64,000 nt of DNA from contig CP084167.1 of NCBI GenBank assembly GCA_021513715.1, forward strand, positions 1,984,001 through 2,048,000, written 5' to 3'. The DNA comes from Candidatus Heimdallarchaeum endolithica (GTDB lineage Archaea; Asgardarchaeota; Heimdallarchaeia; Heimdallarchaeales; Heimdallarchaeaceae). Below are positions 5,982 to 11,603 of this stretch, one piece after another. Every line of letters starts with the position of its first letter. Positions within the stretch are counted from its first letter, which is position 1. The translations under genes were made by a program, and so were the position numbers. Below the pieces are notes generated by a model that saw nothing but the letters and a program-made list of their open reading frames with translations, was not told the DNA's origin and ran no database searches.

Positions 5982-7445
5982 TTAGAAATCTAAAATATTA
6001 ATTATTTCTTTTCCTTCATCTAACAGCTGTTTACATTTGTCCACGAGTAAAAATACTTCTTCTTTAAATGAACTTGAGATCATACCTTTCTCTGCCAAAT
6101 CATTTATAATTTCTGTATCTTGAACTTCTATTTCATCTTCTTTCTTTATTAAAGAAACACCAAGATCGATATAACGAATATAACCTTCATTATATAATTC
6201 TACTGGAGTGACTATTTTTATGTATTCACCCATCAATTTTTCTTTTCTGTAAACTTTAGTGTGGATAGTCCAACAGCCCTCTTTAATATAAGTAACAACA
6301 TTATCCCCACTATTAATAGGCTCATCTATTGCAAAATGTAACCCTCTTGATGCTCTGAAACTCCGCTTAATAACCATCGTATCTTTGTCCCAGTTTAACT
6401 GCCCCAATATTCTATCTAATGGTGACGCAATTAAACTATATGATTGTTCTTTAATCAACGAATTTTCTGAAAAATCTTTCTCTAAGATAACTTCCTTAAG
6501 TATTTTAGACAATTTCTCAGGTTCAATATCTTGAGAGATTCTTTCTGCAAAGGTAGTTGTTATCTTTAAATTTTCAGAGTAAGACATAAACCAGTGATAT
6601 AAAGGAAACGTTGGGGTGATAACACTTCTTATCTCATCCATTTTTTGTTTTGCTCCTTGGACAAATAATATGTGGGCCACTGTTTGACCTGGCTGTAATA
6701 TTCCGGGTCCATAAGAAGAACCAGAAATCAACAAATCTAACTCTTCAGATTTTTGGATTAGTTTTTGTATTTCAGAAGTTAGATCCTTATCACTTACTGA
6801 TGCAGCACTAGTTCTCATAATTAAGCCATGACCATGAGGTCTAAGTTTTTTTCCACGTTCAAACAGATCATCTCTATCTTCTTTTGATAATTTTCTAGAA
6901 ACTCTAACAAAACGCGCATCTCTCTCTAGAATAACATGATGCCCTGGAAAATGAATAACATCCGAACATAAAGGAAGTTGATCTCCTAAAACATTCAACT
7001 CATTTACTTGAACAACAACTTTTTGTCCTTTCTTGTAATTTGCATTAAATAGAATCGCATTTATTTTTTCTCCGATATCAACAATAGAAAGATTTTTCTC
7101 AAAATTTACATGTATTATCTCTCCATTGTATATAGCATGTAGTTGTACTGGATGAAGTAAAACGATGGAATTAGGGATTTTATCAAAAATATTAGAAATA
7201 ATTTCTTCAACATACTCTTCATCACCTTCGATTTTTATCCCATAACCACCTAGAATATCTGTTATATCTATGTCATGAGCATTTAAATTTTCATTTATCC
7301 CGAAAATTTTACTCTGTTCAGCACTAGGTTGTACCAATTTATATCCTAAATCATCAGACAATAATTTAATAATTGCAACATCATAAATACTTCTAACACG
7401 AAAAGTTGGTACCATTAAATCACCACTTGAAATTTCTAACGACAC
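5982..7445 (-). CDS. FAU-1-like RNA-binding ribonuclease (RNase E/G-like region plus DUF402-like C-terminus)
   Basis: N-terminal RVRSIY, VRVSRKL...GLIMRT, C-terminal TPVELY...YIDLGV. Start may be a few codons downstream (MVPTF). Confidence 0.75.
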   Translation of the reverse strand: MSLEISSGDLMVPTFRVRSIYDVAIIKLLSDDLGYKLVQPSAEQSKIFGINENLNAHDIDITDILGGYGIKIEGDEEYVEEIISNIFDKIPNSIVLLHPVQLHAIYNGEIIHVNFEKNLSIVDIGEKINAILFNANYKKGQKVVVQVNELNVLGDQLPLCSDVIHFPGHHVILERDARFVRVSRKLSKEDRDDLFERGKKLRPHGHGLIMRTSAASVSDKDLTSEIQKLIQKSEELDLLISGSSYGPGILQPGQTVAHILFVQGAKQKMDEIRSVITPTFPLYHWFMSYSENLKITTTFAERISQDIEPEKLSKILKEVILEKDFSENSLIKEQSYSLIASPLDRILGQLNWDKDTMVIKRSFRASRGLHFAIDEPINSGDNVVTYIKEGCWTIHTKVYRKEKLMGEYIKIVTPVELYNEGYIRYIDLGVSLIKKEDEIEVQDTEIINDLAEKGMISSSFKEEVFLLVDKCKQLLDEGKEIINILDF

Positions 7446-7545
7446 AAACGGTTAAGCATGTCCGAATAAAAGTTTATGCTTTTGAAACAGTAGAAAACAA
7501 TTAGGTCTACTATAAGAACAGAGGATTGAGGATAAAAAATAATTA

Positions 7546-7641
7546 TGGAGCCAGGACGGGGATTTGAACCCCGGAGGCATAAGCCAGCGGTTATCTCTCT
7601 GACGTTTCGAGACCGCCTCCGTACCACTAGGATATCCTGGC
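7546..7641 (-). tRNA. tRNA-Ser(CGA) with 13-nt intron at 37/38 (7593-7605)
   Basis: Acceptor GCCAGGA/TCCTGGC, anticodon stem GCGGT/ACCGC, variable arm, TTCAAAT T-loop, CCA encoded. Confidence 0.9.
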
Positions 7642-7833
7642 AAAACAAAATTTCATTATTTTGAATTTCATAGAAGTTAATATTTTAAGATTTCTACTAA
7701 GTTCATTTTTCATATTAATATTAATCATTGTTGATTTCAAACCAACTCCCAACACAGTGATAAAATCACATCTCACGCGTGATTTCTTCAATAAGATATA
7801 ATTATAAATAACCAAAATAAGAAAAAAAAAGAG

Positions 7834-8448
7834 TTACAGCCTAATAAAAGTTCTACTCTTGCACTCGGGACAGCCATTTATTGTACACTCATCACAAAGA
7901 AAATTTCCACATTTTGAACATTTTTTTATTGCTTTATTTTTTCTACACTTTACACATGTTTTGATCATAAATCGTTTCCACAGTTTGTATATTAAATAAA
8001 ACAGTGAAAATGCTAATGCAATTCCTAAAATAACCTTTAGTATTATTAACAGTACATTCCCAGCAGTAGGCCCTATATGATCTGGAGTCGCATCTAACGT
8101 TATTTTTAGAATTTTCACGTTTTTATACTCAAAATAACTTACGGAACCATTTGTTTGAGTAACATACCATGAAATTGAAGGCTTTGTTTCTCCTACCTTC
8201 ATACCTACTAATTCACTAACAAAATTATAATTTGTAATATCTTCGTCAATTGCTACTTCTAGGGGGCTATTTTCAGTATATACAGTTTTTAATCTACCAT
8301 CTATATAACGCTCACAAGCAACTTCTACACGATCGCCCCACTCAACACCTAGTTTTTTGTCATAAGCAGTTACATTGATAATTGATGATAGGAATAAAAT
8401 AGTAAAAATAAATGTAAATGTTAGAATTCTGGTTCTAGTTTTACTCAT
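7834..8448 (-). CDS. Single-pass membrane protein: signal peptide, degenerate FKBP-like domain, TM helix, C-terminal 8-Cys zinc finger
   Basis: Hydrophobic N-terminus, LVGMKVGETK, TM helix, CVKC-x8-CSKC-x4-CDEC-x4-CPEC. Paralog of the next gene. Confidence 0.7.
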   Translation of the reverse strand: MSKTRTRILTFTFIFTILFLSSIINVTAYDKKLGVEWGDRVEVACERYIDGRLKTVYTENSPLEVAIDEDITNYNFVSELVGMKVGETKPSISWYVTQTNGSVSYFEYKNVKILKITLDATPDHIGPTAGNVLLIILKVILGIALAFSLFYLIYKLWKRFMIKTCVKCRKNKAIKKCSKCGNFLCDECTINGCPECKSRTFIRL

Positions 8449-8492
8449 CGGTTTTTTTTTATTAGGCTAATTTAAAAGAATTTCTAAGAGGT

Positions 8493-9119
8493 CTATTTTT
8501 TAAATCGAACTAAGGTTCTTCCATTACAACTTGGACAACCATTTTGGAAACAGTGAATACAATAATTTTTTCCACATTTACTACATTTACCTATTGCTTT
8601 CTTCTTACAGATAGAACATTTTTTGAAAAACAATTTTGGATATACTTTAACACCACCATAAATTAAAATTAAGGATCCACCAATACTAGATAATACTATA
8701 ATAAATTTAAAGAAGTCAAAATTTCCCGATGGAGGAGAAGTTGTTGAAGAAACACCTTGAACATCATAAACCTCAACATTCTGATAATGTAACAATTTCC
8801 CTGCTAAATAACCATAATCTGGATCTGAAGCATCAAAACCTTCTTCTGGTGGTATATCAAAATTTCTTTTTTCACCGATCTTCATCCCAAGCATCCTATT
8901 GTACAATCCAATAGGTTTAATATTATTTTCATTAAACAATGTTTTTTTTGGTATCGAACTATCATAATATTCGATTGTCTTTCCATCAACAAGCAAATGA
9001 TACCCAAAAGATACTAAATCGTTATCCTGAAGTCCATTATCATAACCTTGAATTGGTATTGCAACAATAGCAGAAAAGAACAGAATAGCAAATACAAAGA
9101 GTTTATTTAGATATCTCAT
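8493..9119 (-). CDS. Single-pass membrane protein: signal peptide, FKBP-type PPIase-like domain, TM helix, C-terminal 8-Cys zinc finger
   Basis: GYHLLVDGKTI...MLGMKIGEKRNFDIPPEEGF...LAGKLLHY is FKBP-like; TM helix; CSIC-x7-CSKC-x4-CIHC-x4-CPSC. Confidence 0.75.
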   Translation of the reverse strand: MRYLNKLFVFAILFFSAIVAIPIQGYDNGLQDNDLVSFGYHLLVDGKTIEYYDSSIPKKTLFNENNIKPIGLYNRMLGMKIGEKRNFDIPPEEGFDASDPDYGYLAGKLLHYQNVEVYDVQGVSSTTSPPSGNFDFFKFIIVLSSIGGSLILIYGGVKVYPKLFFKKCSICKKKAIGKCSKCGKNYCIHCFQNGCPSCNGRTLVRFKK

Positions 9120-9232
9120 TGTTTTTCAAAAATATAATTAAATTAAAAAGATATCGAAAATGGTTTATTGCTAATAAAATTTTAACTATTTGTAAATTCA
9201 AATATTTATTCTAAAAAGACATGAAATAATTT

Positions 9233-9572
9233 TTACGTAAAAAATATTTTTTCAACAAAGAAGATATTAGAGAGAGGTCAAAAATGCATTTCAAAAACAA
9301 AAACACAAAATAACATAATAAAAGCGTCACAATTTTTCAGAGATATTTATATACTAAAATCACTTATATAAAGTGTCTTGAGCTATATGCTTTAAGACGT
9401 AGGTTTCAGTCCTACGACAGCCGGACTTCCCTATGGGAGTGATGAGTGCCGGGATCAGGAGATGAACCAGTTAGAGAACTTATTGAGACTGTGTCTCTTG
9501 TTCTCTTAAACCAATCCTCACAATCAGATTGTGTTGCTTGGTTGGGTAGAGTCCTGAAGAAATTACGTAAAA
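9233..9572 (+). mobile_element. Putative non-autonomous cassette bounded by TTACGTAAAA direct repeats, carrying a promoter and an omegaRNA-like RNA
   Basis: TTACGTAAAA at 9233-9242 and 9563-9572. The same core flanks the TnpB element at 47524 and 49349. Confidence 0.5.
9346..9353 (+). promoter_or_regulatory. Putative TATA box (TTTATATA) for the structured RNA
   Basis: About 22 nt upstream of the first hairpin. A second candidate, TTATATAAA, lies at 9364-9372. Confidence 0.45.
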
Positions 9573-9590
9573 TTTCAACTCATGATGCTT
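9375..9590 (+). ncRNA. Structured ncRNA, candidate stand-alone omegaRNA (scaffold plus 3' guide)
   Basis: Locally GC-richer intergenic island with stems GTCTTGAGC/GCTTTAAGAC, CGTAGG/CCTACG, CCGG-ACTTCC/GGGAGT-CCGG, and TCAGGA/TCCTGA enclosing AGAGAAC/GTTCTCT and AACCAA/TTGGTT arms; ends in GAAGAAATTACGTAAA. Confidence 0.65.
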
Positions 9591-9692
9591 TAAGGAGACC
9601 TAAACAACAAGGTTTTTTAACTTGCAGAACACCCATCTAAAAATCTTATAAATATAAAATGTAAAAAAAAAATAAAAATGAAAGAAAGGAAA

Positions 9693-11603
9693 TTACCGTC
9701 TAGAGAGCAGAAAACCCACAATTCCAATTATAGCGACAAGAACTAATCCACCACCGACCCAAATCCAAACAGGAATTGGAGGTTTATACTCAATATTATT
9801 TTGGACTCTAGTTCCGCTAAAATCTGCAGTTTTTGCGTTAAAAGAAAATGAGTATAACCCCCCTTTCACGCTTTTTAACAGAATTTCACTTCCCCATCCG
9901 CCATATTTCTCCTCATTAAAAGTAAGATTATAGTAGTATATTCCTTTATCTCCAGTCAATATTAGTGTTACAAAATCAGCTCCATTAGCATTATAAATCT
10001 CAGTTTGATTATAAAATACAATATCTAAGTCACTTACCAGAAGTGTTCTTCCATCAAATGAGATCACTGGCTTATCTAATCTTAGTTTAAAATGTTCTAA
10101 GGTTTCTACTAGCACACTAGCTTGAGGACCTAAGCCAAATGGATCACCGTAAATAGTTGGATAATCCTCATCAACATATGCCAAGCAGAACAATATTTTC
10201 TTTACACTTTTTTCTGGTTCAACGTAAAATTTCTCTTCTGTTGTTTCATAAATTTCATAATCAACAAGTGTGTCATCTTTAGAAAAATATAAAGTTACAA
10301 CACCTAATCTTCTTTTTTCGTTATTAGTGATTCTAACATCCATAAATCTATTAAGTAGATTTATTTCAAATGTGTAAAAACCATAATATGGTACATCAAT
10401 CGTAGATGACAACTCAGTGTAAGTTTTTGATATTGGTTCGATGGTGAATGTAATATCTGTAAATCCAAACGTTCCATTAGCGAGGTCTGGTCTATCAATT
10501 AATAAAGCAACTTGCCAGTTATAAAAAAAGTCGTTAAAAGTTTCTCCTTTATCCTTTAATTCATCGTTTATTGATTCTTGTACAGGTCTAGTGTCATTAA
10601 CAAATTTTCTTATTATATCAGCTCCAAATTGCTCATAAATATAAAAAACAAAAAGATAAGCGCCACCATAATCAATTCGTACATCACGGTTTCCTTCAGA
10701 ATAATAGTTCCAATAAATCAAAGAATCATCAGATTGTTCTTTAAAGTAATTTTCACTCCAATAAGATACTCCATCATAATCTCCTGGCATTCGTCCAGTT
10801 ATATACTCTGAAAATACAGCACAACCTTCATCAAACCACCGCATTTCATCTTGATCATGATTGTAATGAATTAAATGTTGAAATTCGTGCGCTAAAGTGT
10901 CAGTGTAGTCAGCAATGCCACCAATAAATATCATTTCCCACTCATTAGACTTTAAATAAGAATAACCTTGTGCGTTTAGTTCTTCCTGTGTATGTTCATT
11001 AATTCCCCAGAAATATCCAGCATAGTCTGAGGGAAGGTAAGTATGAAGAATAATTAATCGACCATCTCCTATATTTCCTAAATTACCCTCCATATCTCCA
11101 AAAAAGTTATGTTCAATTGGATAAATTTTACTTTCAAATATGCTTTTTTCGCTGGTTATTAGATTATTTACACTATTTTTGCCATATTCATTAATCATAT
11201 CAACTTCTACAAAATAATATGCATGATCTGAAACAGCAATAACTTGTGCTTCTGCAATTCTAAAACTAATAGTATTACCCCCTTCGTCTACATAAAAATT
11301 CTTAGTGTCACCTACACTAAAAGAAGAAGTATAAGTTTTTGTTGCTTTTACCTCATGGCGAGAAATATGTTTGGTATTTTCAATGATTTCTTTTGGAACG
11401 CTATGAGTAATCACAAGTTCATTTTGAGATGAATCCTGAAAGTAATTTGTCACACTTTCTTCAAGCAGCTCATCAGTAATATCTTCTGTACTAGAATAAT
11501 AATTTGAATTCTCAAATAATGAATTTGACATAAAAAATTGTGAAAGAATAACAACAACAAATATTTTGGTTAACAAATAGTGTTTTTTAACAATTATTGC
11601 CAT
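9693..11603 (-). CDS. Secreted, C-terminally membrane-anchored zinc metallopeptidase (M30/hyicolysin-like)
   Basis: TLAHEFQHLIH followed by WFDEG; N-terminal hydrophobic segment and C-terminal TM helix ending in RR. Confidence 0.8.
   Translation of the reverse strand: MAIIVKKHYLLTKIFVVVILSQFFMSNSLFENSNYYSSTEDITDELLEESVTNYFQDSSQNELVITHSVPKEIIENTKHISRHEVKATKTYTSSFSVGDTKNFYVDEGGNTISFRIAEAQVIAVSDHAYYFVEVDMINEYGKNSVNNLITSEKSIFESKIYPIEHNFFGDMEGNLGNIGDGRLIILHTYLPSDYAGYFWGINEHTQEELNAQGYSYLKSNEWEMIFIGGIADYTDTLAHEFQHLIHYNHDQDEMRWFDEGCAVFSEYITGRMPGDYDGVSYWSENYFKEQSDDSLIYWNYYSEGNRDVRIDYGGAYLFVFYIYEQFGADIIRKFVNDTRPVQESINDELKDKGETFNDFFYNWQVALLIDRPDLANGTFGFTDITFTIEPISKTYTELSSTIDVPYYGFYTFEINLLNRFMDVRITNNEKRRLGVVTLYFSKDDTLVDYEIYETTEEKFYVEPEKSVKKILFCLAYVDEDYPTIYGDPFGLGPQASVLVETLEHFKLRLDKPVISFDGRTLLVSDLDIVFYNQTEIYNANGADFVTLILTGDKGIYYYNLTFNEEKYGGWGSEILLKSVKGGLYSFSFNAKTADFSGTRVQNNIEYKPPIPVWIWVGGGLVLVAIIGIVGFLLSRR

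Follow-up and report, generated by a model that had tools for sequence, protein, structure and literature searches.

Tandem membrane-anchored FKBP-fold proteins with a predicted cytoplasmic eight-cysteine finger in Candidatus Heimdallarchaeum endolithica

The window analyzed here is a stretch of 64,000 nucleotides (nt) of contig CP084167.1 from Candidatus Heimdallarchaeum endolithica, and its positions 7834-9119 hold two tandem genes whose products, pB (upstream) and pA (downstream), are paralogs. Both are predicted to be type-I-like membrane proteins with an external FKBP fold, one transmembrane (TM) helix and a cytoplasmic finger built on eight cysteines. We read the pair as membrane-tethered folding helpers whose finger would act as a cytoplasmic docking or assembly module, by analogy with the tail of human FKBP11, and give this reading a probability of about 0.5. 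The docking role is suggested by the layout, by the charge of the tail and by the sharing of the tail among different domains. The layout resembles FKBP11 more than a ubiquitin ligase. No paper describing the FKBP-TM-finger architecture was found in the literature searched.

Under this reading, the ectodomains would act on newly exported, unfolded proteins, pB as a weak prolyl isomerase or chaperone and pA as a non-catalytic binding subunit. The finger would neither signal nor ligate ubiquitin; it would anchor or assemble the two proteins at a partner in the cytoplasm or the membrane. Its likeliest partners would be the translating ribosome together with the Sec translocon, or other copies of the finger by self-association.

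Membrane topology and the FKBP-fold ectodomains

A first-pass annotation, made from the sequence alone, had described two tandem paralogs with a signal peptide, an FKBP-like domain (one clear, one degenerate), a TM helix and a cytoplasmic eight-cysteine finger, and had suggested that they form a transmembrane sensor or ubiquitin-ligase-like pair, possibly an active/inactive heterodimer. Its description of the proteins held up. Both open reading frames (ORFs) are present (Table 1), their products are 28% identical across their full length (BLASTP E 1e-25), and hydropathy, charge, Pfam matches and structural models agree with the proposed anatomy.

Table 1. Features of the pB-pA locus, in window coordinates
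Feature	Position	Strand	Basis
pB gene, 208 amino acids (aa), upstream paralog	8493..9119	-	ORF; canonical-type FKBP ectodomain
pB residues 1-25, signal peptide or N-terminal anchor helix	9045..9119	-	Basic n-region, then hydrophobic stretch
pB residues 26-125, predicted extracytoplasmic FKBP domain	8745..9044	-	Pfam FKBP_C on residues 31-100
pB residues 139-157, predicted TM helix	8649..8705	-	Best 19-residue hydropathy window, Kyte-Doolittle (KD) 2.09
pB residues 166-208, predicted basic cytoplasmic 8-Cys binuclear finger	8496..8624	-	Cys spacing, tail model, cross-brace fold matches
pB-pA spacer, 44 nt	8449..8492	-	
pA gene, 204 aa, downstream paralog	7834..8448	-	ORF; degenerate FKBP ectodomain
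pA residues 29-125, predicted extracytoplasmic FKBP-fold domain, probably not a prolyl isomerase	8074..8364	-	Structural matches to FKBPs
pA residues 132-154, predicted TM helix	7987..8055	-	Hydropathy; continuous helix 129-161 in model
pA residues 163-204, predicted basic cytoplasmic 8-Cys binuclear finger	7837..7962	-	Cys spacing, full-length model

In both proteins the N-terminal hydrophobic helix is preceded by two or three basic residues, and a second hydrophobic stretch follows the ectodomain (residues 139-157 in pB, KD 2.09; residues 132-150 in pA, KD 2.81). The second helix of pB is followed by five Lys/Arg and no Asp/Glu and preceded by one of each kind, and the C-terminal tails of pA and pB contain 14 Lys/Arg against zero to three Asp/Glu. 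The positive-inside rule, together with the need of eight free cysteines for a reducing compartment, therefore places the finger in the cytoplasm and the middle domain outside. Both genes are under strong purifying selection, with overall ratios of nonsynonymous to synonymous substitution (dN/dS) near 0.10 (pB 0.103, pA 0.099). The ratio is 0.046 in the pB ectodomain, 0.044 in the pA ectodomain and 0.084-0.088 in the fingers, and the N-terminal helix segments are relaxed relative to the ectodomains (0.63-0.77; pB 0.63), as a signal peptide would show.

The two ectodomains differ in how readily they are recognized. With Pfam FKBP_C (PF00254), whose gathering cut-off is 21.1 bits, pB scored 26.1 bits (E 1.1e-5, residues 31-100) and pA scored 12.6 bits (E 0.18). 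Among solved structures, the best sequence match of a pB-clade profile was the Methanocaldococcus jannaschii FKBP26 (3pr9/3prb; E 1.2e-4 to 3pr9). The ectodomain of pA is an FKBP fold in its model despite failing the Pfam cut-off, with the five-stranded half-barrel around a short helix that superposes on solved FKBPs. The full-length AlphaFold2 model of pA has a mean predicted local distance difference test (pLDDT) of 91.1 and a continuous helix over residues 129-161, and it matched FKBP13 in VIA at Z 11.0 (root-mean-square deviation, rmsd, 2.5 Å over 89 residues). VIA returned 216 chains at Z of at least 8, 50 of 50 among the matches listed being FKBPs, and Foldseek gave a probability of 1.00 to dozens of FKBPs.

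Whether the ectodomains are enzymes was judged from the pocket of peptidyl-prolyl isomerases (PPIases), which in FKBP12 numbering comprises Tyr26, Phe36, Asp37, Phe46, Val55/Ile56, Trp59, Tyr82 and Phe99. The relative P0024, which scored 74.5 bits on FKBP_C and was aligned to wheat FKBP73, retains Tyr26, Phe36, Asp37, Phe46, Ile56, Tyr82 and Phe99. Since canonical relatives such as P0024 keep this set, the family would have begun as a real prolyl isomerase. In the pocket columns pB has Tyr26, Gly58, Leu59, Phe82 and Tyr99, and its clade has Tyr26 in eight of nine members, Gly58 in nine of nine, aromatic residues at 82 and 99, and Arg or Lys at 56. Leucine at the Trp59 position is a feature shared with SlyD-type FKBPs. 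The residues of pA are Cys26, Asn56 and Asn58, and the 80s loop that would carry Tyr82 is deleted; its clade has Cys or Phe at 26, Asn56 in all ten members, mostly Asn at 58, and no 80s loop in any of the ten. In our reading pB would probably still act as a weak prolyl isomerase or chaperone. Judged from its residues, pA very probably is not a prolyl isomerase. Few parts of either gene are as constrained as the pA ectodomain, which points to a retained binding role.

The closest known counterpart in layout is human FKBP11 (FKBP19; PDB 9n9j), which has the same order of parts as pA and pB: a signal peptide, a non-cytosolic FKBP domain, a single TM helix and a short basic cytosolic tail. With the pA model as query, Foldseek also ranked FKBP11 in the translocon structure (9n9j_A) first, over 152 aligned columns that include the TM helix. 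Other systems hold a PPIase or thioredoxin domain at the outer membrane face where exported proteins emerge, among them PpiD, PrsA, FkpA, TlpA/ResA and the eukaryotic TMX proteins, and the Heimdallarchaeia family likewise spans FKBP and AhpC/TSA-Redoxin ectodomains, as described below. The bacterial catalysts are tethered by an N-terminal anchor or a lipid and are not known to have a structured cytoplasmic domain. The archaeal and SlyD-type FKBPs are cytosolic and have a chaperone domain inserted in the flap, whereas the flap of pB is short and the protein has in addition a signal or anchor helix, a TM helix and a finger. In the translocon-bound form of FKBP11, the basic C-terminal helix adjoins uL22 and 28S rRNA H24 at the secretory translocon, and the protein has been termed a ribosome-binding adaptor (PMC12804085).

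The eight-cysteine finger and the ubiquitin-ligase reading

The translated tails have the spacings CSIC-x7-CSKC-x4-CIHC-x4-CPSC in pB and CVKC-x8-CSKC-x4-CDEC-x4-CPEC in pA. The motif is not a chance pattern, since a six-frame regular-expression scan of the 3.33-Mb genome matched only pA and pB besides junk in low-complexity frames. Among 53 aligned full-length members, ligands 1, 3, 4, 5, 7 and 8 are invariant cysteines and ligand 2 is cysteine in more than 90%. Net charge ranges from +2 to +10 in all 76 distinct tails. The finger is modeled with high confidence in both proteins (pLDDT about 97 in the full-length pA model; about 93 over the finger and 86.7 overall in the pB tail model), and from its spacing it would bind two zinc ions.

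The variation at ligand 6 bears on how the zinc sites are wired. Among the 76 tails this position is Cys in 49, Ser in 18, His in 5 and Asp in 4, the last two being residues that can bind zinc. A histidine lies in the first knuckle (C-x-H-C) in 17 of the 18 tails with serine, and 16 of these 17 also have a longer first loop; the first-knuckle histidine is absent from every tail with Cys, His or Asp at ligand 6. Should this histidine stand in for ligand 6, ligands 1, 2 and 6 would belong to a single zinc site, which is cross-brace wiring and not a pair of sequential ribbons. The covariation may reflect a single evolutionary event.

Comparisons of sequence and structure pointed to the cross-brace class of fold. 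The best Pfam family for the pB finger was ANCHR-like_BBOX (PF22586; 21.6 bits, cut-off 27) and that for the pA finger was zf-B_box (PF00643; 14.7 bits, cut-off 24.1), both below threshold. A sequence search of the PDB gave the ZFYVE19 B-box (2d8v, E 0.012) as a leading match after trigger factor, and a search of the ESM Atlas with the tail gave no usable match. With the 51-residue tail, Foldseek returned a U-box (3lrq) at a best E of 0.033 and nothing at E of 0.001 or below; its matches include the DNA-binding cross-brace finger of piggyBac (5lme, probability 0.89). The top rows of a wide VIA search with the tail were tied at Z 4.0-4.3, and we attach no meaning to one of them, chain 9fhl_a, which is a small protein of the Saccharolobus 30S ribosomal subunit. 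In a second VIA comparison, B-box1 of PML (6imq_B) scored highest (Z 4.8, rmsd 2.7 Å, 45 of 50 residues), followed by the BIRC7 RING (4.5), the TRIM39 B-box (4.1) and the p62 ZZ domain (4.0). The finger fold matches are all cross-brace domains. The models thus suggest a cross-brace binuclear fold closest to B-box1 and tied with RING, U-box and ZZ domains, and the earlier assignment to the B-box/RING kind stands at that resolution.

The B-box comparison can be followed ligand by ligand. The finger shares the spacing C-x2-C-x7-12-C-x2-C-x4-C-x2-C with B-box1 and the ANCHR-like B-box (PML/TRIM19 B1, ZFYVE19) for ligands 1 to 6. It differs at ligands 7 and 8, which are His...His in the B-box and Cys-x2-Cys in the Heimdallarchaeia finger, and it is membrane-proximal, archaeal and outside any TRIM-like protein. 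Two other views of the motif were considered. Two sequential zinc ribbons are unlikely because all fold matches are cross-braces and because ligand 6 covaries with the first knuckle. A rubredoxin-like or Fe-S relay of electrons to the ectodomain was discarded because FKBPs do not depend on electrons and a single TM helix provides no path of cofactors.

The proposal that the proteins are an E3 ubiquitin-ligase-like pair, in which the finger would recruit an Asgard E2 enzyme and couple the state of the ectodomain to ubiquitylation, as in eukaryotic ligases built of an ectodomain, a TM helix and a RING, fared poorly. True E3 domains of the RING and U-box type belong to the same cross-brace class and are among the fold matches (BIRC7, XIAP and IDOL RINGs at Z 3.8-4.5; the U-box noted above), and the genome has genes for three UQ_con (E2-like) proteins and for a single ubiquitin within 1.707-1.876 Mb, the ubiquitin gene lying at 1707443-1707637. 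The RING consensus, C-x2-C-x9-39-C-x1-3-H-x2-3-C-x2-C-x4-48-C-x2-C, is nevertheless missed at three points: the first loop has seven or eight residues and not at least nine, ligand 4 is Cys and not His, and ligands 4 and 5 lie four residues apart and not two or three. The finger models also lack the central helix between ligands 6 and 7, and no RING family of Pfam matched pA or pB at E of 1 or below. The E2 candidates, at 1.711, 1.820 and 1.876 Mb (the last at 1876056-1876424), are distant from the FKBP locus at 1.992 Mb (115-285 kb for the E2 and ubiquitin genes), and no ubiquitin-system gene was found beside family members in 15 loci. Moreover, the same tail occurs on exported thioredoxin-like proteins, so a shared docking module fits better than a substrate-specific ligase. 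We consider a ligase function very improbable.

Family range, duplication and reuse of the tail

The sister genome of Candidatus Heimdallarchaeum aukensis encodes counterparts 83-86% identical to the pair, of which the pB ortholog (86%) is named 'FKBP-type peptidyl-prolyl cis-trans isomerase'. Word-indexed protein searches returned only three to seven relatives each, near ones in Heimdallarchaeaceae, and the family was revealed by an exhaustive profile search. This search gave 100 clusters at E of 1e-3 or below, of which about 55 (clustered at 50% identity) have the whole layout in about 200 aa; the remaining matches are FKBP-TM proteins without a finger and then ordinary FKBPs. In 400 Asgard genomes, full-length matches were confined to the class Heimdallarchaeia, and elsewhere only the FKBP part matched. 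A profile of the tail alone detected it in 29 of 30 genomes of family f1, the one genome of f2, all 12 of f4 and 16 of 22 of f5, and in none of the 17 genomes of f3, f6 and f7. The architecture is thus restricted to four families of Heimdallarchaeia.

In a maximum-likelihood tree, clade A with pA (support 100/100) and clade B with pB (100/96) are sisters at 99/90, and the duplication is therefore placed at the base of Heimdallarchaeaceae. Clade A was duplicated again in one genus, giving A'. Each of the six multi-copy loci examined has B first, followed by A (and then A'), and the spacing varies between 57 nt and a 4-nt overlap; such a conserved order fits a functional pair. The two genes are presumably co-transcribed, and their products may form a complex. 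Co-folding of pB residues 26-208 with pA residues 28-204, each with the alignment of its own clade, gave a score of 0.00, which was obtained without controls and carries no weight either way.

The tail is also found on other proteins. Sister genera have proteins of about 270-315 aa in which a signal peptide and an AhpC/TSA-Redoxin domain are followed by a TM helix and the finger (P0040; locus L024, 6028-6840, minus strand; locus L025, 5817-6761, plus strand), with Pfam E values of 1e-17 to 1e-21. No such thioredoxin-like carrier was found in the single-contig genome of Ca. H. endolithica itself, where the two FKBP copies were the only ones. A genome of family f5 encodes a 258-aa protein (locus L033, 1950-2726, plus strand) with two TM helices, two tandem fingers, a long basic tail and a weak Prok-RING_4 match below cut-off (E 0.0018), and a soluble protein of 447 aa has a possible N-terminal finger (E 8.5e-6). 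The finger is thus a movable module found mostly, but not only, on exported folding catalysts. A stand-alone finger of 54 aa appeared to occur in two f5 genomes and was rejected as a separate form, since the copy examined (genome G057) is a frameshifted FKBP-TM-finger gene. At L030, 2444-2745 on the minus strand, an FKBP-TM-finger copy is split across two frames by a frameshift or an assembly error and mimicked the 54-aa finger.

These observations also bear on two further explanations. In the first, the proteins would be transmembrane sensors whose ectodomains detect unfolded or proline-rich ligands, and the finger would recruit a partner or, cut free by intramembrane proteolysis, would bind DNA or RNA as a small basic zinc finger. 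The layout is receptor-like; pA is strongly conserved (dN/dS 0.044) although it has lost its catalytic residues, as a binding domain would be; stretches rich in Gly and Ser occur in the TM helices; and the piggyBac finger is among the fold matches. Set against this, no conserved signalling domain, site-2 protease or regulator was found beside the genes in 15 loci, canonical relatives retain the full PPIase active site, and it is hard to see what signal other than location FKBPs would share with the thioredoxin-like enzymes that carry the same tail. A sensor is an unlikely explanation.

In the second, the finger would be an oligomerization module and nothing more. B-box-like fingers would self-associate, as in TRIM proteins and PML, and gather pA and pB, joined in other genera by the thioredoxin-like protein, in one patch of folding catalysts on the membrane. 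Consistent with this, the PML B1-box multimer ranks first among the structural matches, the paralogs are in tandem with a conserved order and spacing as tight as the 4-nt overlap, and one relative has two tandem fingers. The self-binding is putative, however, and a positive net charge on every finger disfavors self-association unless a counter-charged partner is present. We regard this explanation as distinctly unlikely.

The docking reading accommodates the sharing of the tail between FKBP and thioredoxin-like ectodomains, and a more specific form of it can be proposed. In this form the finger would be a docking tag for the ribosome or Sec translocon that stations the FKBP pair and, in sister genera, the thioredoxin-like oxidoreductase at the translocon exit. 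This form is speculative and on balance improbable; the ribosome and translocon are putative partners, proposed by analogy. Several further points weigh against the docking reading in general. The tail of FKBP11 is a basic helix without cysteines and that of pA and pB is an eight-cysteine, two-zinc finger, and at an identity of 12-16% the likeness between FKBP11 and pA may be convergent. The fold scores of the finger are low (Z of 4.8 or less, Foldseek E of 0.03 or more), so that B-box, RING, U-box and ZZ domains are inseparable. The 30s-loop residues Phe36 and Asp37 of pB cannot be aligned securely, so any catalytic activity of pB is putative. The tandem-finger protein with two TM helices has almost no ectodomain and there is a possible soluble carrier, so the finger is not exclusive to folding catalysts. 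Finally, the neighbouring genes are housekeeping genes and offer no functional clue.

Neighbouring genes and significance of the family

In each of the seven Heimdallarchaeaceae loci examined, the FKBP-finger genes are followed by an RNase E/G-like gene (window 5982-7445, minus strand; Pfam RNase_E_G, 41 bits), and the gene for RpoA' lies near them in two families. The conserved place of the RNase E/G-like gene suggests no obvious link in function. Directly upstream of the array in two genera is a gene for a Ras-family small GTPase (E 7e-40; L013, 7546-8151, and L019, 4925-5536, both minus strand). The single FKBP-finger copy of a sister family has as its neighbour a gene whose product, about 200 aa long, gives a weak Arf-like match (E 0.006). 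Small GTPases are numerous in Asgard genomes, and such adjacency may be due to chance.

Upstream of pB, the ORF at 9693-11603 (minus strand) encodes a protein of 636 aa that has a hydrophobic helix at its N-terminus, a TM helix at its C-terminus and an HExxH motif. Its NCBIfam match to the metalloprotease MXAN_6640 is weak (E 6e-9, far below cut-off). A functional link between the pair and this metalloprotease-like neighbour was rejected because they are adjacent only in this genus. Between the two lies a G+C-richer stretch of about 356 nt (window 9225-9580), 105 nt upstream of the pB start. The sister genome (L018) lacks this stretch and is otherwise colinear, whereas 24 blastn matches to it occur in its own genome. 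The stretch may have parted pB from the region that originally lay upstream of it.

Just downstream of pA, a gene for tRNA-Phe(GAA) occupies 96 nt (window 7546-7641, minus strand) and probably carries an intron, since it is too long for an intron-less tRNA. No Rfam family matched window 7000-10000 at gathering thresholds. A scan with bacterial consensus sequences found no minus-strand terminator-like site in the pB-pA spacer, and the promoter and terminator counts were not above those of shuffled sequences; for an archaeon, a bacterial consensus carries no information. The seven sequencing runs listed were all of metagenomic DNA with small shares, and none was of RNA.

Among known archaea, Heimdallarchaeia are the closest relatives of eukaryotes, and the family bears on the question of how the co-translational folding machinery of the endoplasmic reticulum arose. 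If the finger is only an oligomerization tag, the family amounts to a modest note on domain architecture. A membrane-proximal, all-cysteine, B-box-like finger also joins the few known prokaryotic cross-brace fingers. A conserved archaeal family with the layout of FKBP11 and the same tail on a thioredoxin-like enzyme is a testable candidate for pre-eukaryotic, translocon-coupled folding. If the finger does serve as a docking tag, the family would be an Asgard counterpart, or even a forerunner, of FKBP11 and the TMX thioredoxins.

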